NCBI GenBank assembly: GCA_034520665.1
Contig: JAXHNJ010000002.1
Span: forward strand, 62,230 to 126,229
Length of the DNA stretch: 64,000 bases
Source of the DNA: Patescibacteria group bacterium
GTDB lineage: Bacteria; Patescibacteriota; Patescibacteriia; JAXHNJ01
Reading direction: 5' to 3'
Below are positions 5,185-19,248 of this stretch, one piece after another (positions within the stretch are counted from its first letter, which is position 1; each line of letters begins with the position of its first letter). The notes beneath the pieces are model-generated. The model worked only from the letters and a program-made list of their open reading frames with translations, had not been told where the DNA came from and did not search any database. Both the position numbers and the translations under genes were made by a program.

Positions 5185-5952
5185 TTATTTAATAAATTCA
5201 GTTAAATCAATATGATTATATTTAGGGGGAATGTAATTTCTATCGCTAATTATTTTTATAATATTCGTAACTATAAGAGATGAGGTTAAATTTGAAGCAA
5301 CCGCAAGTTGAGGATTAAATTTATTTATCTTTTTAATTAGCTCACTACTTTTATTAATAATATATTCTGGCATTTTTATCATTCCATTTTTATATAAACT
5401 AACAATAAAATCTAATTCACTTTTGGGTTTATTATTTTTTAAAAAATCATCTAAAGGGCCTGTTTTTTTATTAATAGTAATGAGCAAGGCTCCAAATCCT
5501 AAATTCATAGGTATAAAAACAGTTTTATCTTCATCTATAGTTTTATCTATTAATTTATAAAAAATATCATTAAGGTCTAAAGTATTTATAATAAAATCAT
5601 AATTTTTTACTAAGCGTAAGTGATTTGCTTTAAATTCTTTTGAATATGCAGTTATATCAGACGAAGGATTTATTAATTTTATAATACATTCCAAGGATTT
5701 AGCTTTGTTTTTACTTAAAAAATCCAAATTAAATACTTGCCTGTTTAAATTTGAAATTGTAACATTGTCAAAATCAAACAAAGTAAATCTTGCAAATCCC
5801 GTCCTTGTTGCTAATAAGGCAATGTTTCCGCCAAGCCCACAACCAGCAAACATTAAACTTATACTTTTTATCTTTTCTTGCATATCAGAATCAATAAACA
5901 AACAATTTCTGCTAATCATTTCGTTGTAATTGTATTGATATTTGTTTAACAT
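5185..5952 (-). CDS. ThiF/MoeB/HesA-family E1-like adenylyltransferase (paralog A)
   Basis: 255 aa. Rossmann nucleotide motif FAGCGLGGN and the E1 signature ISNLNRQ. Only the adenylation domain is present (no rhodanese domain, no CxxC pairs). Its size resembles TcdA/MccB-core-like enzymes. Confidence 0.6.
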   Translation of the reverse strand: MLNKYQYNYNEMISRNCLFIDSDMQEKIKSISLMFAGCGLGGNIALLATRTGFARFTLFDFDNVTISNLNRQVFNLDFLSKNKAKSLECIIKLINPSSDITAYSKEFKANHLRLVKNYDFIINTLDLNDIFYKLIDKTIDEDKTVFIPMNLGFGALLITINKKTGPLDDFLKNNKPKSELDFIVSLYKNGMIKMPEYIINKSSELIKKINKFNPQLAVASNLTSSLIVTNIIKIISDRNYIPPKYNHIDLTEFIK

Positions 5953-5963
5953 CTTATATTTTT

Positions 5964-6671
5964 TTAAAACTCAAAATTATTTGATTTATAATTATAAAAA
6001 TAGAATAATAATCTATCTTTTTCTTTAACTTCGTCCGCTTTTTTTTTAATGTCAATAAAAAAGGGATAGTTGATGGCATTGAAGCAAAATTTGGGCTCAC
6101 CAATTAATTCAACTTCACCAACATAGTTATCAAGAGTTTTTAGAAACCATTTTTCCGCACAACCGAACCAGAATAAATAATCATTTTGCCTAGAAAAAAG
6201 ATAAATCGCTTTAAACATATCTAGCAAAAGCATTGTCTTCCTATAATCGGGGTGTATCATGAATCTTGATAATTCGGTTATTTTTTCTCGGGGAACATTT
6301 TTTAATCTTTTTACTAAATCAAATTCTTTTTCTGTGGGAAACCCAAGTGGCGAGTTCTTTATTATTCTTGAGGTACCAACAATGTTATTATAACGATCGA
6401 ACGCAATAATATGATCGGCGTATTTATCATATAAATCAGTTTCCTTTTTGTCGGGATACTCTTCTTTATTTAATAAGCCATCAACATTGCAATAAATATT
6501 ATATCTAAATTTATACACGCGCTCCATTAGTTCCTTGTTCTCTTCATCTCTAACAAAAATCAATTTGTATTGTTTATAAGGCCGCCTTAAATGAAACAAT
6601 AAATAAGCGCGCAGTAAAAATATTACTATGGGATTTTTGCTATTTTTTATTTTCTTTGCTGAAAAATTCAT
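5964..6671 (-). CDS. GNAT-fold N-acyltransferase, N-acyl amino acid synthase/LuxI-like (paralog B)
   Basis: 235 aa. Motif YKFRYNIYCNVDGLL and ELSRF. Distant paralog of 2128..2826 and 9157..9849. Confidence 0.5.
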   Translation of the reverse strand: MNFSAKKIKNSKNPIVIFLLRAYLLFHLRRPYKQYKLIFVRDEENKELMERVYKFRYNIYCNVDGLLNKEEYPDKKETDLYDKYADHIIAFDRYNNIVGTSRIIKNSPLGFPTEKEFDLVKRLKNVPREKITELSRFMIHPDYRKTMLLLDMFKAIYLFSRQNDYLFWFGCAEKWFLKTLDNYVGEVELIGEPKFCFNAINYPFFIDIKKKADEVKEKDRLLFYFYNYKSNNFEF

Positions 6672-6945: not shown

Positions 6946-8254
6946 CCTAAGACAATAATGCCGATCAATTTATTTTTAATAATCAAAGGCAGACACAAGG
7001 CCGCTTCAATTCTTTTCATATTAGCCTTTAATTTACCGATTTCCGACTTTTCACCCTGCCCATTACTTTTTAAAGACTCCAGTTTTTTGGTAAATAACTG
7101 GTTTTCTTTTTTCTAAAAGATAATTGGTGAGGAAATTATTTCTGACTAGAGAAATGCCGTTAGCTACGGAAAAGCCAATATTGCTCTTAACCTGGTAATT
7201 ATGGGTTTCTTGGTCAAATAATAAAACACCGGTTCGGTCCAGTTTCATGGTGTCTCTAATAGTTTTGACAATGGAAGTCAATGATTTGATCTAAATCAAT
7301 AGAATGAGTCAGTTTCTGGGCCAGTTTTTCCAGAGTAGCCTGGTAGTTGTAAATACTGGCAAAGAAGTATTTGTTGGCAATTCTTTCTAGGTAATTCTTT
7401 AAGGACTCAAAGAGGATTAAGCCGAGCAAAAGGACAATTGGGCCCCAAACACCCGGAGGAATGATTTCCTTGAAATAAGTCATTTCCAGCCAGTAAAGGC
7501 CGAGGGCGAGAAGGATAATTATAATAATGGTGGAAGCATAGATGGCAGTTCTTTTCACGACCAGGCGGATGTCCATGAGGCGGTGGCGGACGATGGCGTA
7601 GGAGGTGAAAACCACGAAAAAAATTATTGACTGAATACCTATATAACTAAATTCTTGAATATTAAATATAGGCAAAATAATGTTAGTTAAAATTGCAATA
7701 ACAGCAGAAATTAATATACCCAAGAAAACATATTTCATTTGCATTCTATGCAACCCTGAACTATTTTTATATTTTATTATTGCTTCGATAAAAGCATAAA
7801 TTATAAATAGAAGGAAATATATAATAAAAAATAAATAAAATGAACCGTAGATAAAATTTGTTCCCCATTCTTGAATATCTACATCTTTTACAATCAAGTT
7901 GGTGTACAGTAAAACTAATAATAATAATGGTACTATATAAATAAATAGTAACTTTTTTTTGGTAATTTCATTTTTATAAAAGGGGAATACGAGACTGAAA
8001 TGGAGTAATATTGCTGGTATTATTATTGGTCCTATAAAAACAATTTTACTTAAACTTAAAGCAATATTCTCATTTATTGCTCTATCTACTAAATAAGTGG
8101 AGAATATCCAAAATCCAATTACAAAAACTAAAAAACCAAAAATAATACTTTCTTTTTTGCCTTTAGATTCATAAAAAACATAAAAACAAAGCAAAAAATT
8201 GAGTAGTAAGATTATCAATGTAATTATTGAAGTAATATCAAATGAAAAATCCAT
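6790..8254 (-). pseudogene. Disrupted paralog of the 7TM-GAF sensor (fragmented into at least three frames)
   Basis: ORF 7256..8254 encodes the intact multi-TM N-terminal region and aligns with 2952..4400 (shared ...HRLMDIR...KYFF...Y.YQ motifs). GAF fragments appear in a different frame (7063..7281). The C-terminal ~50 codons are in a further frame with an internal TAA. Confidence 0.5.
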
Positions 8255-8262
8255 AATTAGTT

Positions 8263-9033
8263 TTATTTATTCGTATAAGCATCAAAAAATATTGGCACTG
8301 GCGCAAAATTAATTTTTACACCTTGAATAAGCTTAATTATTGCTGTTAAAGTAATCGAAGCCACAATATATGATCCAATACAAATTTGCGGATAATACCC
8401 TCTTTTTTTAATTTCTTGAAAAATACTATTAATATTTTTATTTTTTAAAAACGGAAGAGAATACTCTTCTAACGATTTAAATAATTTAATATAAAATTCA
8501 TGATCATTTTTAGGTATGTGATTGCCCCAAATTGATTCAGGCGATGCAGAATGTTTATTAAAAAGCAATAATAATCCTCGAAAACCCAAATTAAAGGGAC
8601 ATAATACAGTTTTATCATTTTTAATAAAATTCGAGATTACTGAAAAATAAATTTTATTAAGATCAACCGTGTTAACTACAAAATCATGTTTTTTTATTAA
8701 ACTTTTCAAAATTTTCTCATTAATATATTTATTTATTACCCTGATATTCGCATTAGAATTAATGTTTATTAAACGTTTTTTTAATCGCTTCGCTTTATTA
8801 TAATTTAAATCATCTAGAATATATGATTGTCTATTTAGATTTGAGATGTTAACTTCATCTCCGTCAGCAATTGTAATATTAGTGAATCCCATTCGAACCG
8901 CCACCTCTGAAATCACACTACCCAAACCACATCCAGCAAAAAGAATGCTAGTTTTTTTTATTTTTTTTTGTAAATTAGAGTCTATATAAATCCAATTTCT
9001 ACTTATAAACGTGTTATAATCAAAATTTTTCAT
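8263..9033 (-). CDS. ThiF/MoeB/HesA-family E1-like adenylyltransferase (paralog B)
   Basis: 256 aa. FAGCGLGS and VNISNLNRQ. About 30-35% identity by eye to 5185..5952. Confidence 0.6.
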   Translation of the reverse strand: MKNFDYNTFISRNWIYIDSNLQKKIKKTSILFAGCGLGSVISEVAVRMGFTNITIADGDEVNISNLNRQSYILDDLNYNKAKRLKKRLININSNANIRVINKYINEKILKSLIKKHDFVVNTVDLNKIYFSVISNFIKNDKTVLCPFNLGFRGLLLLFNKHSASPESIWGNHIPKNDHEFYIKLFKSLEEYSLPFLKNKNINSIFQEIKKRGYYPQICIGSYIVASITLTAIIKLIQGVKINFAPVPIFFDAYTNK

Positions 9034-9156
9034 TTTTTATATTATTGTTGGTTAATTCTTGTTTATCTATTGCATATACTACTCTAAATCCTTGATAAAA
9101 GAAAATGTAAACCTTCATGAATACAAAATATATTTATTCAAAAAAATTATTTATAA

Positions 9157-9849
9157 CTAGTGTATACTATAACTATTCCCTTCACCATTATACTTAATTA
9201 GCCCTTTTTTTAAGTACTTCCATAAGTTTATATTTTCATTTTTAAGGTTTTCTTCCATTTCTGAAATATCTAAAATAAAAGGCGTGGTAATCCCCTGATA
9301 TAATGTCGGCGGACCAATTTTTTTAAAAGGAAAACCAAGTTTAATTAATATGGGGTATAAATTATCATCCATAACGGCAAAAACGTGAGTAATATTCTTT
9401 TCTTTCACAAAAGTGTACATGCCTTTAATCAGGGCGAGAAGGAGAAAATGCTTCCGGTATTTTTTAGCGACAATCAGACGGGATATTTCAGCCAATTTGC
9501 TTCTGTTCTTTTGAAGGATATCAACTTCAATTTTCATGTTTTTCTCTATCGGAAATCCCATTTCTGAGTTTAAAATTAATCTGACCGTGGCGGCTAAATT
9601 TCTAGTTTGTTTTTCTCTTAGTATAAAATGAACTGATTTATCATCATAATTGTCTTTTTCTTTTTTCCCCGGATGTTTATCCTTGTCAATATAACTAAAT
9701 TCCTCGCAAAATACTTCGTAGCGAAGCTTAAAAATTTTTTCTAGTTCAGATTTAGAGTCAGTAGTGTAAAAAATAAACTTATCAGAAAAGCTTCTTTGGA
9801 ACTGCCAAAATTCATAAAATCTTCTTAACTTTTTTATTATTTTTATCAT
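9157..9849 (-). CDS. GNAT-fold N-acyltransferase, N-acyl amino acid synthase/LuxI-like (paralog C)
   Basis: 230 aa. Motif FKLRYEVFCEEFSY and EISRL. Confidence 0.5.
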   Translation of the reverse strand: MIKIIKKLRRFYEFWQFQRSFSDKFIFYTTDSKSELEKIFKLRYEVFCEEFSYIDKDKHPGKKEKDNYDDKSVHFILREKQTRNLAATVRLILNSEMGFPIEKNMKIEVDILQKNRSKLAEISRLIVAKKYRKHFLLLALIKGMYTFVKEKNITHVFAVMDDNLYPILIKLGFPFKKIGPPTLYQGITTPFILDISEMEENLKNENINLWKYLKKGLIKYNGEGNSYSIH

Positions 9850-9889
9850 TTTCTATAACTAGTGCTCACTTCCCTTCTTGTTTTCATTA

Positions 9890-10105
9890 TACCTAAAAAA
9901 TCAAAAAAGCTCTAATTTCTCTGGAAGCCAAAAAAGCCCTAATCTAAAAGGCTAAAGCCGGTTGATTTAAATTAATTCGTGAAAATAAATTAGTAGAAAA
10001 GTCCGGCACCTGCTGGTACAATCGGGTGTTTTCTAAAGCTACCGCCGCTTGATTAGAAAGTGTAGAAAGTAGCTCAATATCTTCTTTGGTGTAGGCGTCT
10101 TTTTT
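9890..10105 (-). repeat. Conserved ~220 bp element, copy C, including a ~135 bp remnant of a 7TM-GAF gene 3' end with no gene body
   Basis: Near-identical to 2880..3100 (closer to copy A than to copy B). Homology stops abruptly at about 10104, some 70 nt before the tRNA-Trp 3' end. Confidence 0.65.
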
Positions 10106-10177
10106 AAGGTTTTGGACCTCTCTTTACGTGAAAGGAGGGGTGGAGACCTACCCCTAATACTAAATATACAGGATTTT

Positions 10178-10252
10178 TGGCAGGGGCACTAGGATTCGAA
10201 CCTAGAATAAGGGTTTTGGAGACCCTTGTGATAGCCATTTCACTATGCCCCC
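10178..10252 (-). tRNA. tRNA-Trp (anticodon CCA)
   Basis: Hand-folded. Acceptor GGGGGCA/TGCCCCT (one G-U). D-arm GTGA-AATGGCTA-TCAC. Anticodon stem AGGGT/ACCCT with loop CTCCAAA. T-arm CTAGG-TTCGAAT-CCTAG. Encoded CCA. 75 nt. Confidence 0.8.
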
Positions 10253-10523
10253 AATAAAAATCCCGCTTATTGTTTTTATAAACCTATTCTTTTTATTAAA
10301 CCTTGATATGAAGAAACTAAATCTCTTTAACTTTTTTTTCCTCTCTTTAGATGCTTCTCTATTATCATAGGCTTCGTAATACTTAAGCTCCAATGGTCGT
10401 CTGTTTTTTGTTGAATACACATCTCCTCTGTAGTAGTCCATCAATCTATTTTTTAAATTTTCAGTTCTGCCAATATATAATCGTTCATCTTTTTTTGCTT
10501 CTTAAAAAATACACATAATACAT
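10202..10523 (-). pseudogene. GIY-YIG nuclease (YhbQ-like) with a -1/+1 frameshift in an A7 run; 3' end overlaps tRNA-Trp
   Basis: N-terminal MYYVYFLRSKK in one frame (ATG 10523..10521). The rest, DERLYIGRTENLKNRLMDYYRGDVYSTKNRRPLELKYYEAYDNREASKERKKKLK, is in the adjacent frame. The shift sits at the homopolymer 10489..10495. No stop occurs before the ORF runs into the tRNA. Confidence 0.5.
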
Positions 10524-10566
10524 AATATTTCTTTCGCACCATCAAAATCTGTCGTTTATATTTAAA

Positions 10567-10722
10567 CTACTTCACTTCCTTATGTAAAGTATGTTTACGG
10601 CACTTTTTACAATGCTTTTTAATGTTGAGCTTCTCTTTTATTTTCTTTTTATTCTTTTTTGAGTAGTAATTTATATTATTACACTCAGTGCATTTAAGTT
10701 TAATCAGATTGTCTTGGGACAT
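10567..10722 (-). CDS. rpmG: 50S ribosomal protein L33
   Basis: 51 aa (below the ORF-track cutoff). [51 protein letters not shown] has the L33 CxxC...Y.T.KN...CxxC..HT pattern. Confidence 0.7.
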
Positions 10723-10759
10723 AATTTTAAGTTAATTTAAGTTAGTTAGTTTAATTAAG

Positions 10760-11131
10760 TTAATTAAGGTTGTTCTGGCTTGATAAATAGTTAATATATT
10801 TATTCAATCCAATCAATAATCCTTCATAATCCTGATCAACTCTTGTAAATTTCTCTAAGTTCAAATATTTCAAGCCTTTAGCTACTCTTAAATGACTCCT
10901 TATTTCAAAAATTTCTCCTCTTGCTTGGTATAAAATTCTAATCTTATCCTTATAAAAATAACGTCCTTGACTTTCAGCAATATTAGCAATAACAGAATTA
11001 GAAGCTCTTTTCAATTGATTAATGAGGGCATATTTTTCAGTATCAGGAAAATTATTTGTTATTTGATAAATACAAAGAACTAATTTATATCCTTTCTGCC
11101 AAATATTTAATTTAAAGAACGCTTTTACCAT
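10760..11131 (-). CDS. Four-helix-bundle protein (23S rRNA intervening-sequence protein / Avd-like family)
   Basis: 123 aa. FKLNIWQKGYKLVLCIYQIT..FPDTEKYALINQLKRASNSVIANIAES.GRYFYKDKIRILYQARGEIFEI matches the conserved IVS-protein pattern (L.VWQKA..L...IY.....FP..E...L..Q..RAA.S...NIAEG..R....D). Confidence 0.6.
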   Translation of the reverse strand: MVKAFFKLNIWQKGYKLVLCIYQITNNFPDTEKYALINQLKRASNSVIANIAESQGRYFYKDKIRILYQARGEIFEIRSHLRVAKGLKYLNLEKFTRVDQDYEGLLIGLNKYINYLSSQNNLN

Positions 11132-11221
11132 AATTCATTTCTTTTCACGCCACCAAAATGTCTTTATTAATATATCGAAATTAACTAAATCAACTTAAGA
11201 AACCTTAACTAACTTAACTTA

Positions 11222-11347
11222 TGGAGCCGAGGAGAGGAATTGAACCCCCAACCTACTGTTTATCCCGAAGTTCTCGAAATTTTGCCATGGAGCCAGCGCC
11301 TCGGGCCCAGAACCGACGACCTACGGTTTACCCGCCTGCCGAACGCC
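11222..11347 (-). other. Two tandem tRNA 3'-end-like fragments (T-arm-like + acceptor 3' strand + TCCA), not foldable as complete tRNAs
   Basis: Each unit (66 and 60 nt) ends ...GGCTCCA like the neighbouring tRNA-Thr genes and contains a GGTTC-type T-loop-like segment. I could not find a matching 5' acceptor strand. Confidence 0.3.
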
Positions 11348-11423
11348 TGGAGCCGGAGGTGGGAGTCGAACCCACGACTTGCTGTTTACAAAACAGCTAC
11401 TCTGACCACTGAGTTACTCCGGC
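11348..11423 (-). tRNA. tRNA-Thr (anticodon TGT)
   Basis: Hand-folded. GCCGGAG/CTCCGGC acceptor. ACTC-AGTGGTCA-GAGT D-arm. GCTGT-TTTGTAA-ACAGC anticodon arm. GTGGG-TTCGACT-CCCAC T-arm. Encoded CCA. 76 nt. Confidence 0.8.
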
Positions 11424-11560
11424 GCCCGGCGACTGGCGGGCAGACAAAACAGTTGTGCCGATAGCCAGAGGCTATCGAACCTTCTCGATTCGCCAAGCGA
11501 ATCGGGACTCTAGCCAACTGAGCTACGCCGGCAAAAGACAGACTGTTTATCAGCTCAAAG
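11424..11560 (-). other. tRNA-like element with canonical 5' start (GCCGGCGTAGCTCAGTTGGCTAGAGT) but two inserted perfect 7-bp hairpins; no canonical cloverleaf
   Basis: It starts like an Ile/Ala-type tRNA. It is then followed by GATTCGC-ttg-GCGAATC and GATAGCC-tctg-GCTATC hairpins and no matching acceptor 3' strand. Confidence 0.3.
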
Positions 11561-11646
11561 TGGTGGGCCGAGTAGGATTCGAACCTACGAAGCCCGAAGG
11601 CGCCAGATTTACAGTCTGGTGCATTTGACCACTCTGCCACCGACCC
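11561..11646 (-). tRNA. tRNA-Tyr (anticodon GTA), type II with long variable arm
   Basis: Hand-folded. GGGTCGG/TCGGCCC acceptor (two G-U). CCAGA-CTGTAAA-TCTGG anticodon arm. Variable hairpin GCC-ttcg-GGC. GTAGG-TTCGAAT-CCTAC T-arm. ACCA end. 86 nt. Confidence 0.8.
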
Positions 11647-11663
11647 ATTACTTTGAGCTGATT

Positions 11664-11915
11664 TTATTTTAAGATACTATTTAGATATTTTCGGCCTTGG
11701 CCAGATTTTAAAAACTTTTCTCTCTTCATTGCCTCTGACCTAGTTTTAAAAATTTCATGATATATTAATTTCCAAGGTTTTCTTCCTTTAGTATACGGGC
11801 ATTTTCCTTGATTATGTTTTTTAATTCTATTATTCAAATTTACAGTTTGACCCGTTTGACCACTTCGGTATCCACCCACTATTGCTTGCCATCTTTTATT
11901 TTTTTTATAATGCAT
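11664..11915 (-). CDS. GIY-YIG nuclease (YhbQ-like)
   Basis: ORF 11664..11969; the likely start is the internal Met (MHYKKNKRWQAIVGGY...). GQTVNLNNRIKKHNQGKCPYTKGRKPWKLIYHEIFKTRSEAMKREKFLK is the conserved GIY-YIG C-terminal pattern. The extreme N-terminal 18 codons of the track ORF read through a duplicated tRNA-Tyr fragment. Confidence 0.55.
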   Translation of the reverse strand: MHYKKNKRWQAIVGGYRSGQTGQTVNLNNRIKKHNQGKCPYTKGRKPWKLIYHEIFKTRSEAMKREKFLKSGQGRKYLNSILK

Positions 11916-11947
11916 TTGCCTGCCCGCCAAAACGGAAGTGAAGGCGG

Positions 11948-11995
11948 GACCACTCTGCCACCGACCCATTACTTTGAGCCGATTTTATTTAAGTG
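11948..11995 (-). repeat. Duplicate of the tRNA-Tyr 5' end plus ~25 nt of its upstream flank
   Basis: ggaccactctgccaccgacccattactttgagc(c/t)gattttatttaag also occurs at 11620..11668. Together the two copies bracket the GIY-YIG gene. Confidence 0.7.
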
Positions 11996-12140
11996 CTAGC
12001 CCACGCGCAGACTTGTCACCCTACGGGTGATCCTCCAAAGGAGGAAACCGCTAATTCTTTGAAAAAGACACAAAATAAGTTCTACTCCTTACCCCCGACA
12101 TTCGTCGGGGCAAGCATGAAGTTGCTCTACCCGCTACCTC
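11990..12140 (-). pseudogene. Degenerate tRNA-Thr(GGT)-like copy with a 22-nt insertion in the anticodon loop, truncated D-arm and no T-arm
   Basis: GGGTAGAGCAACTTCATG[CTTGCCCCGACGAATGTCGGGG]GTAAGGAGTAG equals the intact neighbour (...GGTAGAGCAACTCCATGGTAAGGAGTAG) once the bracketed 22 nt are removed. The downstream sequence forms unrelated hairpins. Confidence 0.35.
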
Positions 12141-12216
12141 TGGAGCCCACCGTCGGATTTGAACCGACGACCTACTCCTTACCATGGAGTTGCTCTACCA
12201 ACTGAGCTAGGTGGGC
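12141..12216 (-). tRNA. tRNA-Thr (anticodon GGT)
   Basis: Hand-folded. GCCCACC/GGTGGGC acceptor. GCTC-AGTTGGTA-GAGC D-arm. ACTCC-ATGGTAA-GGAGT anticodon arm. GTCGG-TTCAAAT-CCGAC T-arm. Encoded CCA. 76 nt. Confidence 0.8.
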
Positions 12217-12480
12217 AAAAGAGGTAGTGGGGCCAACTGCTCGCCCCGAGCATTGACGAGGGGAGCTACGTGGGCCTAAGCTGAGGTTTAGGTGGGTCTA
12301 CCAACTGCCCGCTCGTCATAATTTGCGCTCAAGCGCTAGCGAACGAGAGTTACGTGGGCCTAGCCAAACAGCTGAGGGTTTACTGGATTTTTAATTACAG
12401 TTGCGATATTTATCCTCCGAATCCTGAAGGGCCAAGGAGGACCAACTGAGCTAAGACTGCTCGGGCGATGGCAGGCAAGA
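12217..12480 (-). other. Three further tRNA 5'-fragment-like units (GGCCCACGTAGCTC...AGTTGG / TAGCTCAGTTGG...) with stem-loop insertions in the D-loop; GC-rich
   Basis: Units at about 12217..12276, 12277..12360 and 12361..12480 begin like tRNA-Thr/Ile but carry inserted hairpins and lack anticodon and T arms. I found no RNase P (P4) or tmRNA signatures. Confidence 0.3.
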
Positions 12481-12507
12481 ACTACCTAGAATTATTTTTT
12501 TAAATAA

Positions 12508-13401
12508 CTACATATTATTAACTTCTTTTTCTAATTCGTCAAGTTTTTCATTTTCCGGATTAACCTGTTTTAATTTATCAAAAGTACGTACGGCCAAACT
12601 TTTATTCCTTGCTTCAATACTTAATTCCAATAAAGCACTGACATATTTAGGATTATTTGGTTCTAAGTTCAAAGCATCCTGATAAGATTTTATAGCTTTT
12701 TGTATATCATCACAGGCTGTATAAATTTTAGCTAGATTAGCGTGATAAGTAGCAATTTTACTGTTAATATTTATTGATTTAATAAGATCCTGTTTTGCTT
12801 CATCTAAATTACCCAATGAACTGGCAATAACCCCTAAATTTTCATAAGCCTTGTCATCCTGAGCATTAAGTTTAATCAAAAAGGAAAATATTTCCCTAGC
12901 GTGTTCATAATCTTTTTTAGCTAGATAAACTTCTCCTAATAAATGATAAGCGGAAATATTCTTTTGGTCAAGACTAATTATATTTATACAAATCTCTTCA
13001 GCTTCATTTAAATCTCCGGATTTTTTAAGCTCTTCGGCCGTTCTTAACTTATCTTCCATTTCTTTATTTATCTTTTTCTTTGCTTCAATAGTCTTTGGTT
13101 TTATTTTTTTCTTTTCCCGATATTTTTTTTCAAGCTCCAATAATTGGTAATACCATTTTTTTATTTTATTTTTAACTTCATCATAATAAGGATAAGTTTT
13201 TTGCTTAAATATAAACGCCATATTTACAATTTTTCTTTTTAAACGGCCTTCCAATATTTCTTTTTTAACCTGAGCTTCTTTTTCTTCCGGTATTTTTTTA
13301 GTATCAATCATGCTCAAAACCTGAATTTTTTTCAGAACTAAAAGTATTATCAGGACTAAAGAAAGAATGGCTATGATTAAGGCAATTATATTAAAAATCA
13401 T
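12508..13401 (-). CDS. Membrane-anchored tetratricopeptide-repeat (TPR) protein
   Basis: 297 aa. N-terminal TM helix, a charged coiled-coil segment, then TPR-like repeats (AY..LG..Y...DY..A...F, A..NLG......GN.DEA). Confidence 0.5.
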   Translation of the reverse strand: MIFNIIALIIAILSLVLIILLVLKKIQVLSMIDTKKIPEEKEAQVKKEILEGRLKRKIVNMAFIFKQKTYPYYDEVKNKIKKWYYQLLELEKKYREKKKIKPKTIEAKKKINKEMEDKLRTAEELKKSGDLNEAEEICINIISLDQKNISAYHLLGEVYLAKKDYEHAREIFSFLIKLNAQDDKAYENLGVIASSLGNLDEAKQDLIKSININSKIATYHANLAKIYTACDDIQKAIKSYQDALNLEPNNPKYVSALLELSIEARNKSLAVRTFDKLKQVNPENEKLDELEKEVNNM

Positions 13402-13420
13402 TTTATTATTATATATATTA

Positions 13421-14209
13421 TCAATCTTTATTTAATTTCATTTCTATGATTGTCCCGTCTTCCAGTCTAACTTTGTAAGTCTTCATAATAATATTCCAGG
13501 AAATGACTTTGCCTCTCCCCTGCTTAGTTTTTATCTTACTTTCAAGAGAAGGAAACTTTTTAGCCATTTCACGGTAATAATCCTCCTCATAAGCCAGGCA
13601 ACAAAATAATTTACCACAGACACCAGAAAGCCGATCACTGCCCCGATGGGCTATTTGCTGATCACGAGCTAAATCAGTAGAAATATTACCCAGTTTTTTA
13701 AGGTGAGTCATACAGCAAAGTTTTCGACCACAGGGACCAAAGCCGCCTTCCTGTTTGACTTCATCTCTGGTTCCTACTTGTTGTAGACGGATTGATTTTT
13801 GAAAATTTCTAGTTAAATCTTTTACTAAATCTCGGAAATCAACTCGGCCATCAGCAATAAAAGTGAAAGTTAAACGACCACCGTCAAAAGAGAAAAAAGA
13901 ATTAAGCAACTTCATAGGTAGATTGTGTTTGTCAACCATCTTCTTACAATATTCTACAGCTTCTTTTGCTTGGTTTTTATACTTTTTTATCTTTTCTAGA
14001 TCATCTGGCTGAGCCTTTCTAATAAAACTAACTTCTTTTTCTTTAACAATTTCTTCCGTTTTAAAGCTTTCCAAAACAGATGTATTTTCTATTCCTTGAT
14101 CAGTTTTAACAATAACAACATCTCCCTTTTTTAATTTAGCACCACCTGATTTTACGACAATTATATCACTCCAGGGATGTACTCTAATTTTTATGGCCGA
14201 AAATACCAT
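13421..14209 (-). CDS. PSP1 C-terminal domain protein (RicT/YaaT-like)
   Basis: 262 aa. Conserved FGPCGRKLCCM...GVCGKLFCCLAYEEDYY cysteine motifs of the PSP1/RicT family. Confidence 0.6.
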   Translation of the reverse strand: MVFSAIKIRVHPWSDIIVVKSGGAKLKKGDVVIVKTDQGIENTSVLESFKTEEIVKEKEVSFIRKAQPDDLEKIKKYKNQAKEAVEYCKKMVDKHNLPMKLLNSFFSFDGGRLTFTFIADGRVDFRDLVKDLTRNFQKSIRLQQVGTRDEVKQEGGFGPCGRKLCCMTHLKKLGNISTDLARDQQIAHRGSDRLSGVCGKLFCCLAYEEDYYREMAKKFPSLESKIKTKQGRGKVISWNIIMKTYKVRLEDGTIIEMKLNKD

Positions 14210-14213
14210 TTAT

Positions 14214-14801
14214 TTATAGACTATACTTAACAAAACGAGATACTTTGATATTCTCACCAAGTTTAGCTATTTTTTCAGTTATTAAATCTTCGATTTTTTT
14301 CTTATCTTCCTTAATATAACTCTGTTTTAACAGACAAACCTCTTCATAAAATTTATTTATTTTACCTTTTACAATTTTATCTATTATTTCCGCAGGTTTA
14401 TTTTCTTTTTCCAGCTGTTCTTTTATTATTTCTTTTTCCTTATCTAAAACTTCATCCGGTACATTTTCCGGTGATAAATACTGTGGATCCATAGCCACAA
14501 CCTGCATAGCCAGATTTTTGCCTAATTCTTTAAATTCTTTATTTTTAGCCACAAAGTCTGTTTCACAATTCAACTCTACTAAAGATGCTGATTTGTTATC
14601 ATTGTGTACATAACAAGCAATCATCCCCTGAGAAATTTCTCTGGTTTGTTTCTTAGCCGCAATTTCCTCTCCCTTTTTACGAAGCGCCTCAATAGCTTTT
14701 TTTGCATCACCCTTAGTTTCCTCCAGAGCTTTTTTTACATCAACAATACCAGCCCCTGTTTTTTCTCGGAGTTCTTTAATTAATTTATTATCTATTTTCA
14801 T
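14214..14801 (-). CDS. tsf: Elongation factor Ts
   Basis: 195 aa. N-terminal LIKELREKTGAGIVDVKKALEE UBA-like EF-Ts signature. Immediately downstream of rpsB. Confidence 0.85.
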   Translation of the reverse strand: MKIDNKLIKELREKTGAGIVDVKKALEETKGDAKKAIEALRKKGEEIAAKKQTREISQGMIACYVHNDNKSASLVELNCETDFVAKNKEFKELGKNLAMQVVAMDPQYLSPENVPDEVLDKEKEIIKEQLEKENKPAEIIDKIVKGKINKFYEEVCLLKQSYIKEDKKKIEDLITEKIAKLGENIKVSRFVKYSL

Positions 14802-14802
14802 A

Positions 14803-15543
14803 TTATTTTTCTCCTTTATTGTTTTTATCTTTATCTTCTTTTTCTTTTTTATTTTTATTAGTAGTACCAGATTGAGAAGCGTAGCTTTCAGTTAGTGCTT
14901 TAGTTATTAATTCTAAAGATTTTGTAGCGTCATCATTGGCTGGAATTACATTTTTAATTCCCTTGGGATTAGAGTTAACATCAACCATAGCTACGATAGG
15001 AATATTCTTCTTAACCGCTTCATTAATAACTGTTTTTTGATTTTTTACATCCACAATATAAACAGCGTCAGGCAATTTATCCATATCAGCAATACCGCCG
15101 ATAATTTGGTCTAACCTTTCGATTTCCTCATTTATTTCCAATCTTTCCTTTTTGGTATATTTTTCTAATTCTCCACTCTTTTTTTGATTTTTCAAATTTT
15201 TATACTTATTGATCATCTTTTTTATAACCCGGAAATTAGTAAAAGTACCACCCACCCAACGATCAGTGATATAAGGCATATTTATTTGTTGGGCGTATTT
15301 TTTTATAATTGGAGAAGCTTGTTTTTTGGTGCCAACAAAAAGGATATTGCCGTTTTTTTCGGCAATTTTCTTAAAAAAATCTTGCGCCTCTTTTAAGGCT
15401 TGTTTAGTCTTTTCCAGATCGATAACGCAAACCCCTTGTCTTTCTGAAAAAATAAAAGGCTTCATTTTTGGATAAACACTCGATGATCTGTGCCCAAAAT
15501 GAACCCCACTTTTAAGCATTTCCTCCAGGGAAATATCATTCAT
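14803..15543 (-). CDS. rpsB: 30S ribosomal protein S2
   Basis: 246 aa. MLKSGVHFGHRSS...KMKPFIF S2 signature. Classical rpsB-tsf pair. Confidence 0.9.
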   Translation of the reverse strand: MNDISLEEMLKSGVHFGHRSSSVYPKMKPFIFSERQGVCVIDLEKTKQALKEAQDFFKKIAEKNGNILFVGTKKQASPIIKKYAQQINMPYITDRWVGGTFTNFRVIKKMINKYKNLKNQKKSGELEKYTKKERLEINEEIERLDQIIGGIADMDKLPDAVYIVDVKNQKTVINEAVKKNIPIVAMVDVNSNPKGIKNVIPANDDATKSLELITKALTESYASQSGTTNKNKKEKEDKDKNNKGEK

Positions 15544-15792
15544 ATTAACTTTTCCTTTCCTTTTTTATCCTCTATTTTGGGATTTTTACGAGCTTTTTTT
15601 AGGCCCTTTTTAAAGGGCCAAGGTAATAAGCTTACTCCCAAAATATGTGTGATCTTATTAATTAATTATATATATTAGTGTTAAAATAATAACATATTTA
15701 TATCAGATAATCAAGCCCTATAACTAGTAAATAAATAATCCTTGCCAAAATTCAAATTATCTGTTATCATTGACATAATTAAAATATAATTT

Positions 15793-16074
15793 ATGAAAAA
15801 AGATACTCATCCTAAATATTATAAAAAGGCAAAAGTTGTCTGTGCTTGTGGCAATACTTTTACTACCGGTTCTACTAAAAAAGAAATTCAGGTAGAAATT
15901 TGCTCAGCCTGTCATCCTTTTTATACTGGCAAATCCAAGTTAATTGATACAGCTGGCCGGGTGGACCGTTTTAAGAAAATGATGGAAAAAACTAAGGTTA
16001 AGTCAAAAAGTTCTCAGCCAAAGAAAAAACAACGCCGAAAAAAGAAGAAAAAGAAAGCAAAAAAGGAAAGTTAA
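15793..16074 (+). CDS. rpmE: 50S ribosomal protein L31
   Basis: 93 aa. [10 protein letters not shown]...CACGN...[10 protein letters not shown] zinc-ribbon L31 pattern with a lysine-rich tail. Confidence 0.85.
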
Positions 16075-16137
16075 CAAAATTAAAATTTCAAAAAATTCCC
16101 TTATTGAAATAATGGGAATTTTTTTCATTTAATACTT

Positions 16138-17184
16138 ATGGATAAACTAAAAAAATTACAAAAAAAACACCAGGACCTGGAAAAAAAACTGCAAAAAAAA
16201 GAGATAATCAATAACCCAACCAAGCTCAAAAAAATATCAAAAGAATATGATGAGTCTGGGCATTTGTTAGAATTATATAATAAATTAGAAGAAGTTAAGC
16301 AAGGTTTAAAGGAAACCGAAAAAATCATCAGTGAAACTTCTGAATCAGAATTAAAGAAAATGGCAGAGAAAGAAGAAAAAAATATTAAACAAAAAAAACA
16401 AGAATTAAAAAAAGAAATTAAAGAAATTGAAAATCCTAAAAATCTTCTAGATAAAAAAGATATTATTGTAGAAATTAGAGCCGGTACTGGCGGTGATGAA
16501 GCCGCTCTCTTTGCCTCTGATCTTTTTCGTATGTATTCGCGCTTTGCTGAAAATAAGAGCTGGCAAACAAATTTAATTTCTTCAAACAAAACCGGCATTG
16601 GCGGATTTAAAGAAGTTATTTTTGAAATAAAAGGCACTAATGTTTACTCCAATCTAAAATATGAGTCGGGCGTTCATCGGGTACAAAGAGTACCCGAAAC
16701 TGAAAAACAGGGTCGAATTCACACTTCAGCCGCCACGGTGGCTGTTATGCCCGAGGCAGAGGAAATAGATATTAAAATTAATCCCAAAGATATAAGAGTT
16801 GATACTTTTTGTGCTTCTGGTCATGGCGGTCAATCAGTTAATACTACTTATTCAGCTGTCAGGATAACTCATCTACCCACTGATCTGGTCGTATCCTGCC
16901 AGGATGAAAAATCCCAGACCCAAAATAAAATAAAAGCGATGCAAGTTTTGCGTTCCCGTCTTTTGGCCTTAGAAGAAGAAAAAAGACAAAAAGAAGAATC
17001 AGCTAAAAGAAAGTCTCAAATTGGCTCCGGCGACCGCTCGGAAAAAATTAGAACTTATAATTTTCCCCAGGACCGAATAACTGATCACCGGATTAAAAAA
17101 AGCTGGCATAATCTAATCGAAATACTGGATGGTAATTTGGATAAAATTATTAAAGAATTAAAAGTCATTGATGAGAGTAAATAA
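16138..17184 (+). CDS. prfA: Peptide chain release factor 1
   Basis: 348 aa. GGQ motif (GGQSVN) and PxT-type tripeptide (RVQRVPETE) characteristic of RF1. Confidence 0.85.
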
Positions 17185-18001
17185 AATACTTGAAAATTCT
17201 TATAAAAAACTAAGGGATAGAAAAATAAAGTCTGCTTCTCTAGACACAGAAGTCCTTCTTTCTTATGTTTTGAAAAAAACCCGTTCTTATCTTTATATTT
17301 GGCCAGATAAAAAAATAACCAAAAACCAAGCGACAAGATACAAACGATTAATTAAAAAAAGATGTGACCATGAACCAGTAGCTTACTTAATCCACCATAA
17401 AGAATTTTTTGGTCTTGATTTTTACATTAACAAAAATGTGCTTATCCCCCGCCCAGCCACCGAAACTTTGGTAGATATAATTATAAAGCTCGTAGATGCG
17501 GGTCGCGACCCGCATCTACGTATTCTGGATGTAGGCACTGGCTCGGGTTGTATGGCTGTCACTTTAAAAAAATATTTACCAAAGACCAGAATACTAGCCT
17601 CTGACCTTTCGGAAAAAATACTTAAAATAGCCAAAAAAAATGCCAAAAAAAATAAAGTCAAAATAAATTTTAGAAAAGGCAATCTTCTAGAACCCTGGAA
17701 AAACTTTAAACTGGATATCATAGTAGCTAACTTGCCCTATTTAACCCCTCAGCAAATGAAAGCCAAATCCATTCAAGCCGAACCCCAAAAAGCCCTTTAT
17801 GGCGGTAAAAAGGGTTTAGAAATTTATGAAGAATTATTTCGGCAAATAAAAGACTTTAAAATAAAAGCAAAAGTATTTATAGAAATTGACCCCCGGCAAA
17901 TAAAAAATATTACTAAATTAATTAAAGAATATTTCCCCAAAAGAAAAATAGCGGTTATTCAGGATTTATCCGGACAGGACCGGGTGGTAGTGATCAAATA
18001 A
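17168..18001 (+). CDS. prmC: Release-factor glutamine N5-methyltransferase PrmC/HemK
   Basis: 277 aa. SAM motif [11 protein letters not shown] and the N/DPPY-type motif NLPY. Overlaps prfA by 17 nt (classical pairing). Confidence 0.8.
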
Positions 18002-18021
18002 TTTTTTTAGCAAAAAAAAGA

Positions 18022-18052
18022 AGGGGGCGACCGCAATGGATCACGCCCCTTG
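18022..18052. terminator. Bidirectional intrinsic terminator (GGGGGCG...CGCCCC hairpin flanked by A/T runs)
   Basis: A GC-rich hairpin between convergent prmC (+) and the 18114..18935 gene (-), with an A8 run 5' and T-rich sequence 3'. Confidence 0.55.
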
Positions 18053-18113
18053 ATAGTGGGAAAAAAGAAGTTATTTTTTAATCTTTACTGGTAGCCACCG
18101 TAAGAATACAGAT

Positions 18114-18935
18114 TTAGTAAGCGAAATTAACGCCTGAACGGACATACTCGTCACGCTGATCATAAGAAATGTAGATCGAGCTGTCAGGAGCGTATTTCCA
18201 GCTAAGTGTTACCATCCAGGTATTTTCAGTGTCTCCGAAATCATACAGACCGTACAATCTCAAACCCTTAGGAAAATCAATGTGGTTCTGGACAAAGAAG
18301 ACACTCTCCTTACCTGGAATATTTTCTTCGTAGCGAGTAAGACCAACAAAGGGATTAAACCAGTAATTGAAACTATGCTGCCAGGCGACTCCGTGAGCCG
18401 TATTCTGGACATAGAAACCAGTCAGTCCATAAAGACCCAGTGTCATCGTTGACCCACCGTTGTAGTGAGCAGCTTTTACACTCCAGTTGCCATGAGAGTA
18501 CCACAGGGCCGTACCAGCACAAGAAACTGGCAAGTCTGCCTTAGCGTCCGGCCAACGAGATAAGCGATTATGGCGCGGTCCCGGCCAGATGAGATTGACT
18601 GGACAAAGATACTGTCCAACGAGAAAATTGAACTGACCACCGCTGTAATTGCGATCGAATTGCACATACAAATACTTCAGACTTGACGTTGTGTAGTCAA
18701 ACTCGGTCCGAACCATAATCTTCTGTCCCAGGATATCGCTATACGGATAGAATTTTATGCCGATCCTTCCCCAAGCAAACCGGTAATCCTCGATTTTTTT
18801 GTCAGGCAAGTCGAGCCTGGCAAAGGTAGTAATCTTTAGATCATCAACTTGAAGATCATCGGCCACAGCCGAGACTAAGAAAAACAAGCAGATAAGAAAG
18901 AAAAATACTGCTATCGTCCAGATTGTCCTAAACAT
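18114..18935 (-). CDS. Secreted beta-rich protein, outer-membrane beta-barrel/porin-like, compositionally foreign (high GC)
   Basis: 273 aa. N-terminal signal peptide. Alternating aromatic/hydrophobic beta-strand pattern. C-terminal ...VNFAY. By eye GC is about 45% against about 30% for the window. Confidence 0.4.
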   Translation of the reverse strand: MFRTIWTIAVFFFLICLFFLVSAVADDLQVDDLKITTFARLDLPDKKIEDYRFAWGRIGIKFYPYSDILGQKIMVRTEFDYTTSSLKYLYVQFDRNYSGGQFNFLVGQYLCPVNLIWPGPRHNRLSRWPDAKADLPVSCAGTALWYSHGNWSVKAAHYNGGSTMTLGLYGLTGFYVQNTAHGVAWQHSFNYWFNPFVGLTRYEENIPGKESVFFVQNHIDFPKGLRLYGLYDFGDTENTWMVTLSWKYAPDSSIYISYDQRDEYVRSGVNFAY

Positions 18936-19248
18936 CGATTTTCTCCTTTAACAAGTTTAACTCGGAAATTAAATTAATTTCAATACTCCTCATTTCATTT
19001 ACGGTAGAACCTCTTTACTTATTAATTCCCAAACCTTACTTTCTAAAGATATTTCTATATCTCCAAAAAAGTGAGGTTGGAGATTTATTAATGTACAGAG
19101 CTGATCATAATAATATAAATTTTAGAAATTGTCAAGAGCTATGATACCAAAAAATCAGACCTTTTGGCCTGTTCATGTCAATTCTTTTAGTGGCTACTTA
19201 GATTAACTTAACTAACTAAGAAACCAATTAACTAATTAACTAAATCAC

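Follow-up and report, generated by a model that had tools for sequence, protein, structure and literature searches.

Why should a short stretch of a bacterial chromosome hold complete tRNA genes buried among pieces of the same genes? The question is raised by a 64,000-nucleotide (nt) stretch of DNA from a Patescibacteria group bacterium (GenBank assembly GCA_034520665.1, contig JAXHNJ010000002.1, positions 62,230 to 126,229), here called the window, in which a tRNA field of about 1.3 kb contains three intact tRNAs amid tRNA fragments and hairpins. In this study, we report that the fragments are colinear pieces of older tRNA-Thr and tRNA-Tyr genes split by insertions, and that the inserts include today's intact tRNA together with its complementary leader and trailer. 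The region is probably a stack of successive tRNA-gene replacements by a homing-like cassette composed of a GIY-YIG nuclease gene and a replacement tRNA. An original prediction, made from the letters of the window, had read the field as the scars of repeated integration/excision or homing events aimed at tRNA-Thr and tRNA-Tyr. Homing or insertion of this kind is supported by the nested colinear pieces, the same architecture in relatives, swapped alleles and recurrence at unrelated tRNAs.

Intact tRNAs were called using ARAGORN and Rfam (60-72 bits), which agreed on the three clean tRNAs of the field that had been predicted, Thr-TGT, Tyr-GTA and Thr-GGT. All features of the tRNA field lie on the minus strand. 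The intact genes, each found by both programs, are listed below together with the tRNA-Trp that follows the field.

10178-10252, minus strand, tRNA-Trp
11348-11423, minus strand, tRNA-Thr(TGT)
11561-11646, minus strand, tRNA-Tyr(GTA)
11549-11670, minus strand, the same tRNA-Tyr(GTA) with a leader/trailer helix of 12 base pairs (bp) (ATCAGCTCAAAG / CTTTGAGCTGAT)
12141-12216, minus strand, tRNA-Thr(GGT), acceptor GCCCACC/GGTGGGC

The check by tRNA predictors and Rfam that had been proposed recovered these four intact tRNAs only, and did not resolve the fragments into ordinary intact tRNAs. When 10100-12600 was searched against Rfam at the gathering cut-off and then at E<=10, only the four tRNAs reached their gathering score, and no group I intron, transfer-messenger RNA or known small RNA was among the matches; the best sub-threshold matches were YrlA (23 bits, cut-off 69) and Plastid-ycf2 (24 bits, cut-off 66).

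Displaced pieces were recovered by blastn-short of the intact tRNAs against the region, and their coordinates were fixed by a contiguous segment map. Around tRNA-Thr(GGT), the three GC-rich 5' tRNA-like fragments with D-loop insertions noted originally proved to be Thr-like pieces (S1-S3), the innermost of which belongs to an interrupted host gene, tRNA-Thr(GGT)'. The following features were mapped.

12442-12460, minus strand, S1, outermost displaced 5' piece of tRNA-Thr(GGT), GCAGTCTTAGCTCAGTTGG, identical in 18/19 bases to the intact allele of relatives L004 and L017
12413-12441, minus strand, 29-nt hairpin after S1, followed by an AT-rich remainder at 12382-12412 (segment map)
12297-12359, minus strand, S2, displaced 5' piece (positions 1-23) of tRNA-Thr(GGT) with a GCCCACG acceptor (segment map)
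12308-12346, minus strand, 39-nt D-loop insert within S2
12276-12296, minus strand, leader1, after S2 (segment map)
12233-12275, minus strand, S3, 5' Thr-like piece with D-loop insert (segment map)
11998-12275, minus strand, interrupted host gene tRNA-Thr(GGT)', acceptor GCCCACG/CGTGGGC (ARAGORN on the joined pieces)
12263-12275, 12233-12238, 12115-12130, 12082-12092, 12046-12052 and 11998-12015, minus strand, exon-like pieces of tRNA-Thr(GGT)', corresponding to tRNA positions 1-13, 14-19, 20-34, 35-45, 49-55 and 56-73 (segment map)
12239-12262, minus strand, 24-nt D-loop hairpin insert in tRNA-Thr(GGT)' (hairpin scan, insert removal)
12131-12232, minus strand, insert in the D loop of tRNA-Thr(GGT)', made of leader2 (12217-12232), tRNA-Thr(GGT) (12141-12216) and trailer2 (12131-12140)
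12093-12114, minus strand, 22-nt anticodon-loop hairpin in tRNA-Thr(GGT)', at ATG^GTAA (hairpin scan)
12016-12045, minus strand, 30-nt T-loop double hairpin in tRNA-Thr(GGT)' (TCCTCCTTTGGAGGA + TCACCCGTAGGGTGA), with a homologous element at the same place in relative L010

A further insert of 29 nt, AT-rich, lies between the anticodon-loop hairpin and the T-loop double hairpin. Removal of six inserts from 12275..11998 left a 71-nt sequence that ARAGORN recognised as tRNA-Thr(ggt) with a full cloverleaf. The acceptor strands of the interrupted gene, GCCCACG and CGTGGGC, match one another and not those of the intact tRNA (GCCCACC/GGTGGGC), and leader2 and trailer2 are complementary (CTACCTC/GAGGTAG). 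RNAfold paired the halves of the interrupted gene, and also the leader and trailer around the intact tRNA, with a z-score of -4.3; the folding z-scores of the region were -4.3 and -5.7. The S2 junction, at which GGTAGA meets CCCRCCTAAACCTCAGC, is common to the window and relative L005.

The second nest surrounds tRNA-Thr(TGT). Here the predicted pair of tandem 3' fragments ending GGCTCCA was confirmed by blastn-short (F1 and F2, E 2e-4 and 2.5e-5 against intact tRNAs), as was the unit with a tRNA 5' end and two perfect hairpins (X).

11445-11532, minus strand, X, 5' part of the displaced host gene tRNA-Thr(TGT)' (blastn-short, segment map)
11331-11444, minus strand, insert at TTTTG^TAAA of tRNA-Thr(TGT)', made of leader (11424-11444), tRNA-Thr(TGT) (11348-11423) and trailer (11331-11347)
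11288-11330, minus strand, F1, 3' part of tRNA-Thr(TGT)' (TAAACC ... CGCTGGCTCCA) (blastn-short)
11222-11272, minus strand, F2, 3' part of an older tRNA-Thr(TGT) (blastn-short)

X comprises an acceptor and D arm forming the 5' end (11507-11532), a 49-nt double hairpin (11458-11506) and an anticodon 5' half (11445-11457); its two hairpins, at 11486-11504 and 11459-11477, each have a perfect 8-bp stem and a 3-nt loop. X and F1 are colinear around tRNA-Thr(TGT): since X ends in TTTTG and F1 starts with TAAA, the intact gene, with its partly complementary leader and trailer, sits in the anticodon loop of the displaced one. The acceptor strand GCCGGCG of X pairs with CGCTGGC of F1, whose T loop is degenerate. 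X and F1 spliced together were not recognised as a tRNA by ARAGORN, this older copy being too degenerate. F2 is identical in 36/41 bases to the 3' end of the intact tRNA-Thr(TGT) of L004, with the acceptor strand CCTCGGC in both.

Pieces of tRNA-Tyr adjoin, and partly overlap, the open reading frame (ORF) of a GIY-YIG nuclease, and a second GIY-YIG gene lies beside tRNA-Trp.

11911-11990, minus strand, Tyr'1, recent displaced tRNA-Tyr copy with a D-loop hairpin (repeat search, blastn-short)
11835-11877, minus strand, Tyr'2, older displaced tRNA-Tyr 5' piece, positions 1-43, 72% identical, inside the GIY-YIG ORF
11664-11834, minus strand, remnant of a stand-alone, UPF0213/SLX1-like GIY-YIG nuclease gene, 74% identical to residues 12-79 of the intact L005 gene
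10178-10523, minus strand, second cassette, with a GIY-YIG gene (10253-10523) directly upstream of tRNA-Trp (10178-10252) (tblastn)

The duplicate of the tRNA-Tyr 5' end that had been reported is a real direct repeat, although of 43 nt (11627-11669 versus 11948-11990, 98% identical) and part of the longer piece Tyr'1. This piece consists of a leader copy (11968-11990, 22/23 identical to the intact gene), tRNA positions 1-20 (11948-11967, identical 20/20), a 29-nt D-loop hairpin (11919-11947) and positions 20-27 (11911-11918). Tyr'2 is of the GGGTGGA allele, which relative L017 carries intact, and is fused directly to the truncated GIY-YIG reading frame. As a separate observation, the 43-nt repeat (11664-11670, 11985-11993) extends into the last codons and stop of the GIY-YIG gene (..TTAAAATAAAATC versus ..TTAAATAAAATC), so the upstream copy was probably once preceded by another GIY-YIG gene; this suggests that the whole unit of GIY-YIG, leader and tRNA was tandemly duplicated, as in the amplification driven by the phage nuclease SegB.

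The GIY-YIG gene had been taken for an intact unit bracketed by tRNA-Tyr and its duplicate; its N-terminal catalytic part is in fact lost. Its open frame runs upstream to 11915 or 11969 through tRNA-derived sequence, and the ORF 11664-11969 matched Pfam PF01541 (E 3e-12, 47 bits, cut-off 22.6) over profile positions 17-74 only. The homologous part starts ..NNRIKKHN, upstream of which lie Tyr'2 and other non-homologous sequence. In intact homologs Y5, Y16, G18, R26, H30 and N31 are invariant and E62 is at least 90% conserved; the Tyr-linked copy has tRNA-derived sequence in place of the catalytic Y5/Y16 region. The Trp-linked gene starts MYYVYFLRS.., has one frameshift in an A7 run, which may reflect either genuine decay or a sequencing error in the homopolymer, and reaches tRNA-Trp without a stop codon; at this position relative L028 carries an intact gene (5844-6089). 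Because the Y5/Y16 region is lost in one copy and a frameshift is present in the other, both copies of the window are judged, from their sequences, to be inactive.

The family is of the stand-alone UPF0213/SLX1 type, being most similar to BH0048, EF2693 and the SLX1 N-terminal domain (PDB matches 1zg2, E 1.8e-6; 6seh, SLX1, 1e-3; 1ywl, 1e-3). All 217 homologs are short and have PF01541; those among the 120 matches listed have 52-130 amino acids, mostly about 80, and the proteins of about 80 amino acids contain no C-terminal DNA-binding or other extra domain. Matches to TIGR01453 and phrog_314 were weak and limited to the N-terminal motif. Membership of a defence system was considered and rejected, PADLOC giving weak motif-level matches only (UzuA, PDC-S14).

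Is this arrangement peculiar to one contig? Syntenic contigs of relatives, whose PSP1 proteins are 47-64% identical to that of the window, keep the order rpsB-tsf-PSP1-TPR-[tRNAs]-rpmG-Trp and have the following contents between or beside these genes.

L004, tRNA-Thr(GGT) with a 12-bp leader/trailer stem; displaced tRNA-Tyr 5' piece with a double hairpin at CTG^TAAA; intact GIY-YIG; intact tRNA-Tyr; tRNA-Thr(TGT); rpmG; tRNA-Trp
L005, displaced 5' piece GCCCACCTAGCTCAGTTGGTAGA; leader; intact tRNA-Thr(GGT) of the GCCCACG allele; trailer; rest of the displaced gene with loop hairpins; intact GIY-YIG; tRNA-Tyr; tandem tRNA-Tyr 3' pieces, each with a T-loop double hairpin
L010, tRNA-Thr(GGT) flanked by an inverted repeat (scan, 15 bp perfect; judged by eye, about 18 bp); homolog of the 3' half of the window's pseudo-Thr, with hairpins at the same three positions; pseudo-Tyr; internally deleted GIY-YIG
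L017, two tandem pseudo-Thr 3' pieces; tRNA-Tyr 5' and 3' pieces (GGGTAGG/CCTACCC) flanking an intact GIY-YIG and an intact tRNA-Tyr of the GGGTGGA allele
L028, host tRNA-Thr with matched acceptor halves surrounding an intact tRNA-Thr(GGT); intact GIY-YIG upstream of tRNA-Trp
L019, tRNA-Thr(GGT) and tRNA-Tyr 25 nt apart; no pieces and no GIY-YIG

Alleles are swapped between these lineages: the S1 allele is intact in L004 and L017 and the S2/S3 allele in L005, and the allele that is intact in the window (GCCCACC) is a displaced piece in L005. The nuclease gene beside tRNA-Tyr is found in several states, being intact in L004, L005 and L017, truncated in the window, internally deleted in L010, and absent from L019 and from L028. 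L010 also carries an extra tRNA-Tyr copy (12186-12260) between the deleted GIY-YIG and the intact tRNA-Tyr, which equals the intact gene up to the T loop (..GTAGGTTCGA) and then diverges into unrelated sequence with a long hairpin (GTCGCCGTGTACC..GGTACACGGCGA).

Identity tables indicate that the relationships of the GIY-YIG genes are incongruent with those of their hosts: GIY-YIG and host PSP1 identities were 74% versus 61% for the window and L005, 50% versus 64% for the window and L004, and 52% versus 66% for L004 and L005, and the L005 gene was 66-71% identical to genes located beside Asn, Ser and Gln tRNAs elsewhere. Patchy occurrence at a homologous site combined with incongruence with the host, the pattern by which a functional homing element is recognised, is therefore what these tables and the gene states contain.

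The tblastn matches of the GIY-YIG family over 664 kb (the window and the loci) all lay 20-75 nt upstream of a tRNA on the same strand, except the L004 copy, which is 275 nt from its tRNA across a scaffold gap. In 7/7 unrelated homolog contexts sampled, an intact tRNA was located no more than 100 nt away and was accompanied by one or more displaced pieces of the same tRNA with loop hairpins.

L092, tRNA-Asn, GIY-YIG, tRNA-Asn 3' piece
L095, tRNA-Ser(TGA)' with D-loop and T-loop inserts, GIY-YIG, tRNA-Ser(TGA)
L099, tRNA-Gln(CTG)' with four inserts, GIY-YIG, tRNA-Gln
L100, tRNA-Gln(TTG) 5' piece, GIY-YIG, tRNA-Gln, 3' piece, with a double hairpin on both pieces
L101, tRNA-Ser(CGA), GIY-YIG, tRNA-Ser 3' piece with a T-loop double hairpin
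L102 (Margulisbacteria), two tRNA-Tyr 5' pieces, GIY-YIG, tRNA-Tyr
L103, tRNA-Gln', GIY-YIG, tRNA-Gln, 3' piece

In L095 the displaced and intact copies differ by 1 mismatch in 70 aligned tRNA positions. Among 2.9 million viral contigs the family had a single match, adjoining a tRNA piece, so a phage vector is not supported. That match (L104 1-330) is at the end of an IMG/VR contig and may reflect where a prophage boundary was called, not a true phage gene; at its 3' end it overlaps a piece resembling a tRNA, called tRNA-Cys by ARAGORN, with the hairpin TCCGCCGCAGGCGGA in place of the anticodon arm.

GC-rich hairpins, often as a 30-nt double hairpin, occupy the D, anticodon and T loops of displaced pieces. 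The geometry of the double hairpin is two units of a 6-bp stem and a 3-nt loop, and a strict scan for it gave 57 matches versus 11-20 in shuffles. The loop positions are fixed. The T-loop site is GGTTC^GAATC in L005, L092, L095, L099, L101 and L103, in all of which a double hairpin of 30-31 nt splits the displaced copy beside the GIY-YIG gene exactly there, and TT^CAAGT in the window and L010; anticodon-loop inserts are at G^TAA or its equivalent, and the D loop is also used. In L005 one element is present in different tRNA species of a single genome. Stems vary and are still paired (TGCGCC..GGCGCA and CTCGCC..GGCGAG; TCCTCC..GGAGGA and TCACCC..GGGTGA; TCTCCC..GGGAGA and TGTCCC..GGGACA), a pairing that is built into the sample because the instances were gathered by hairpin scan. 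Double hairpins of 30 nt were also found in AT-rich, tRNA-free intergenic DNA (e.g. TCCGCCACTGGCGGA + TCCGCCTTTGGCGGA), at the following positions.

L039, 1833-1862
L055, 2188-2217
L059, 6003-6032
L069, 3163-3192
L092, 595-624

Their presence there points to a wider repeat family in Patescibacteria, and in these bacteria the double hairpins appear to be a small palindromic repeat of general occurrence.

Other readings of the hairpins were tried and rejected. For the window, genome-wide miniature inverted-repeat transposable elements were rejected, 7/13 of the GC-rich perfect hairpins of the 64 kb falling in the tRNA field. As the ends of the GIY-YIG cassette they are misplaced, since in L017 and L004 more tRNA sequence stands between the complete double hairpin and the ORF. 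As introns they lack bulge-helix-bulge geometry at the anticodon insert; moreover, the L010 pseudo-Thr is a 3' half only, and some T arms are replaced rather than interrupted. A split or intron-bearing tRNA would be the sole copy of its gene, but an intact copy of the same tRNA was adjacent at every locus examined and many interrupted copies are truncated. Elsewhere in the window, a perfect 13-bp GC-rich palindrome with a 4-nt loop at 17491-17520 (CGTAGATGCGGGTCGCGACCCGCATCTACG) is its longest perfect GC-rich hairpin.

Leader/trailer stems were scanned for at 39 tRNAs, from the window and from loci L004-L103, by comparing the 30 nt upstream with the 30 nt downstream of each gene. Stems of 7 bp or more with perfect Watson-Crick pairing were present at 19/39, versus 5.4% of random controls. 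Their sequences vary among relatives with the pairing kept, some are AT-rich (e.g. TTTATCTTTCATT/AATGAAAGATAAA in L028), and none is present at the clean L019 genes. Such stems may clamp the tRNA for processing or insulation, may resemble a terminator in function, or may be the terminal repeats of inserted tRNA units.

How would such a stack arise? The unit that we infer is a cassette of a stand-alone GIY-YIG gene of about 80 amino acids and a complete tRNA gene clamped by complementary leader and trailer. By analogy with phage SegB, the nuclease would break the resident tRNA gene, and repair from a cassette-bearing copy, with the tRNA-derived flanks as homology arms, would land the cassette inside the resident gene and supply a working substitute. 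The split resident gene would persist in two parts, its 5' piece lying upstream and its 3' piece downstream, repeated rounds would produce nested layers, and the nuclease gene would decay after fixation. The same analogy makes the GIY-YIG protein the probable maker of the break and suggests what it may recognise; the hairpins may be part of the element or later colonisers.

Several observations weigh against this account. The nuclease is a bare UPF0213/SLX1-like domain that lacks the DNA-binding domain of SegB or I-TevI, so that site-specific cutting is putative. The intact tRNA beside the GIY-YIG gene still carries GGTTCGAATCC, which leaves self-immunity unaccounted for, and the tRNA-Thr(GGT) and tRNA-Thr(TGT) nests have no nuclease gene, so a lost or trans-acting one must be assumed. 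Junction duplications vary from 2 to about 45 nt, which is compatible with recombination and does not define a single clean mechanism. Double hairpins also lie far from tRNAs in AT-rich intergenic DNA and may be colonisers with no tie to the cassette. Only about 12 loci were sampled, those in synteny cannot be counted as independent, and among near-identical strains no filled-versus-empty polymorphism was found, the empty reference L019 being a distant relative.

A bolder form of the replacement account, which we put forward only tentatively, is a chromosomal gene-replacement drive. Here a minimal SLX1/UPF0213-type nuclease without a DNA-binding domain would recognise tRNA-gene loops, through the universal T-loop sequence or through cruciform or hairpin tRNA DNA, and break resident, essential tRNA genes; being copied in with a substitute tRNA, it would become indispensable. 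The 30-nt double hairpins would be integral, as immunity at the recognition site or as a nuclease handle, and the element would hop between tRNA species and phyla (Patescibacteria, Margulisbacteria), driving allele turnover.

Local rearrangement without any nuclease, by unequal crossing-over, slippage, template switching or gene conversion among adjacent similar tRNAs, is unlikely; in this reading the GIY-YIG gene would be an ordinary neighbour, perhaps a repair or structure-specific nuclease co-transcribed with the tRNAs. The UPF0213/SLX1-like family is not a proven homing family, and recent duplicates are near-identical to the intact copy (Tyr'1 and L095, as above), as rearrangement would leave them; the tandem tRNA-Tyr 3' pieces of L005 and the junction overlaps of varying length fit it equally. 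Tandem duplication or deletion, however, yields direct repeats and not a whole tRNA with complementary flanks inside a D or anticodon loop, and the displaced copy frequently differs in allele from the intact one, with stems compensated and the alleles swapped between lineages. Nor would rearrangement account for the GIY-YIG association at unrelated tRNA species and in another phylum, or for the conflict between nuclease and host relationships. Quite unlikely, in our estimate, is a functional RNA architecture, in which fragments, hairpins and leader/trailer helices are working parts, kept by selection, of one long transcript, a pre-tRNA or an mRNA (clamps for processing or insulation, sites for RNase III or RNase P, or a leader resembling a tRNA that controls GIY-YIG expression). 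The high GC content maintained in an AT-rich genome, the folding z-scores, the excess of leader/trailer stems whose pairing outlasts their sequence, the hairpin stems that differ between copies and are still paired, and a promoter-like site just upstream (12542-12514) would all suit it, but the pieces vary in number, extent and order among relatives, L019 has none of them, the Rfam search matched no family, and both the half-gene of L010 and the replaced T arms fit it poorly. The promoter match was not above shuffle expectation. It may hold for the clamps, where it is compatible with the cassette model. The related proposal that the GC-rich fragments form one unrecognised structured RNA is not supported, given the lack of any Rfam family match even at E<=10 and the variation of the pieces between relatives.

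The integration/excision part of the original prediction was not supported. Islands or prophages integrated at tRNA 3' ends and since excised or decayed would leave tandem att-like fragments, and F1 and F2, as 3' pieces ending in CCA downstream of tRNA-Thr(TGT), occupy the classic position of attR remnants, with a foreign-looking 23S-IVS/Avd-like gene adjoining F2. We nevertheless regard this origin as very improbable: the ORFs of 7000-16000 include no tyrosine or serine recombinase, leaving about 4 kb around the field free of any integrase ORF; gaps of 15-100 nt separate the pieces and hold no island cargo; most pieces are 5' or internal; the layers are nested and hold whole tRNAs; and the family is almost absent from viral contigs. 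An assembly artefact, in which metagenome reads of several strains were mis-joined at repeated tRNA sequences, is hardly credible. The Logan contigs (SRR26473340) do end exactly at the 43-nt tRNA-Tyr repeat on both sides, and runs of N interrupt the scaffolds of L004 and L005 in this region, but the Logan contigs are 100% identical to the window across 11950-19401 and 10064-11656, so that the fragment fields on both sides are independently assembled; S1-S3, the nested tRNA-Thr(GGT), X, F1 and F2 each lie inside single contigs, and the same architecture occurs in many samples, assemblers and lineages. Replacement by a GIY-YIG and tRNA cassette remains the reading that we prefer.

The setting of the field adds some further features. 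On the minus strand the order is rpsB, tsf, PSP1 (PSP1/RicT), a TPR protein, the tRNA field, a 23S-IVS/Avd-like gene, rpmG, the second GIY-YIG remnant and tRNA-Trp. A contig search with the TPR protein gave one spurious archaeal match only. The window has 33% GC overall, and 11200-12480, the GIY-YIG ORF excepted, has 50-60% between flanks of about 25-30%. The following were located.

12514-12542, minus strand, promoter-like site, sigma-70-like TTGACG-17-AATAAT (10/12), directly upstream of the fragment field
10760-11131, minus strand, 23S-rRNA-IVS/bAvd-like four-helix-bundle gene (PF05635, E 6e-30), between F2 and rpmG

Were the promoter genuine, transcripts of the tRNA operon would carry S1-S3 in their 5' leader; no terminator-like site was found within 10000-12700. 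Of the IVS/bAvd-like gene, L010 has a C-terminal remnant (12618-12700, ..DREYEGLLVGLNKYFNYLSSQK) directly after tRNA-Thr(TGT), and L004 has merely 36 nt in its place, so it looks like a separate insertion that comes and goes 3' of tRNA-Thr(TGT). The original prediction had noted that tuf, expected between tRNA-Thr and rpmG, is missing and replaced by fragments and the IVS/Avd-like gene; a local loss is not supported. L004, L010 and L028 also pass from tRNA-Thr(TGT) to rpmG without tuf, so its absence predates these events. Downstream of tRNA-Trp, at 10040-10160 (minus strand), a GC-rich stem (GGGGTAGG ... CCTACACC) encloses a Trp-like anticodon motif (TCCAAAACC) and a hairpin, and may be what is left of a displaced tRNA-Trp. 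After it comes a coding fragment that is out of context (..KEDIELLSTLSNQAAVALENTRLYQQV..) and similar to part of a sensor protein.

If the cassette reading is true, essential single-copy tRNA genes in ultra-small genomes are repeatedly overwritten by a selfish cassette that brings its own substitute. This would explain allele turnover, the clutter of pseudo-tRNAs that makes annotation difficult, and why assemblies break at tRNA clusters, and the stacked displaced pieces would be a record of past tRNA alleles usable as markers of lineage history. To our knowledge, SegB-type biology is known experimentally only from T-even phages; it would be extended to cellular chromosomes and to a minimal nuclease of 80 amino acids. 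The UPF0213/SLX1-like bacterial proteins are widespread and, as far as we know, have no assigned function, and a concrete candidate function would be provided for them. The double hairpins would be the bacterial equivalent of the double-hairpin elements of mitochondria, placed in tRNA loops with unusual precision.

The literature on GIY-YIG genes and tRNAs in Patescibacteria/Parcubacteria, pseudo-tRNAs of the candidate phyla radiation, UPF0213 and double-hairpin elements was searched, and the architecture was not found described there; its parts resemble several known systems. As with the att remnants of integrase islands, partial tRNA copies adjoin an intact tRNA, but att remnants are 3'-end duplicates with an integrase-bearing island between them, whereas the pieces here are 5', internal, 3' and nested, lie tens of nt from one another and come without an integrase. 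In mitochondria, double-hairpin elements and GC clusters are short GC-rich palindromes of two hairpins in AT-rich genomes; they occur in intergenic DNA and in those parts of RNA genes that can be spared, and are presumed to be mobile. The elements described here are likewise short, GC-rich and scattered in an AT-rich genome; they differ in being bacterial, in their strict geometry and in their fixed sites (TTC^GAAT, G^TAA, D loop), and the likeness noted is one of form. The archaeal multi-intron, split and permuted tRNA genes of Thermoproteales and Nanoarchaeum are sole copies, spliced at bulge-helix-bulge motifs by EndA. Short hairpin inserts at non-canonical D, anticodon and T positions, and complementary flanks joining halves, are shared with them, whereas the copies described here are bacterial, always adjacent to an intact copy, often truncated and without an evident bulge-helix-bulge motif.

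In the organelle genome of Allomyces, the free-standing homing endonuclease gene atp6-ORF360 reportedly brought in a replacement segment and left a displaced native fragment; further examples come from fungal mitogenomes. The resemblance to such organelle genes is that a complete gene, hybrid or new, is regained on insertion, the displaced fragment lies beside the ORF and the endonuclease gene later degenerates; the mitochondrial targets are protein-coding, however, whereas here bacterial tRNA genes receive a complete substitute gene in stacked generations. Within Patescibacteria itself, tRNA genes are known to carry group I introns in the anticodon loop, including at position 35/36 (PMC13011429). 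Phylum and anticodon-loop location are the same, but those introns are self-splicing, several hundred nt long and interrupt a functional gene, while the inserts here are hairpins of 22-49 nt or whole tRNAs in redundant copies, with no Rfam intron.

The closest analogue is SegB of phages T4 and T6, a free-standing GIY-YIG homing endonuclease within the tRNA gene cluster (PMC2330249, PMC13096335). It recognises GGTTCRANTCC in the T loop, cuts tRNA genes at their 3' ends and homes along with the tRNAs next to it (PMC2330249). It also causes tRNA-Tyr and a truncated segB to undergo segmental amplification (PMC13096335). Unlike SegB, a multi-domain phage protein, the protein described here is a bare UPF0213/SLX1-type domain of about 80 amino acids with putative nuclease activity, and its genes are chromosomal, in Patescibacteria and Margulisbacteria. 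A whole tRNA nested in a displaced copy and hairpins in the loops are, as far as we know, reported in neither of the SegB papers. The likeness lies in a GIY-YIG gene located among tRNA genes, in partial and tandem copies of both the tRNA and the nuclease gene, and in displaced copies that adjoin the nuclease gene and are interrupted precisely at GGTTC^GAATC.

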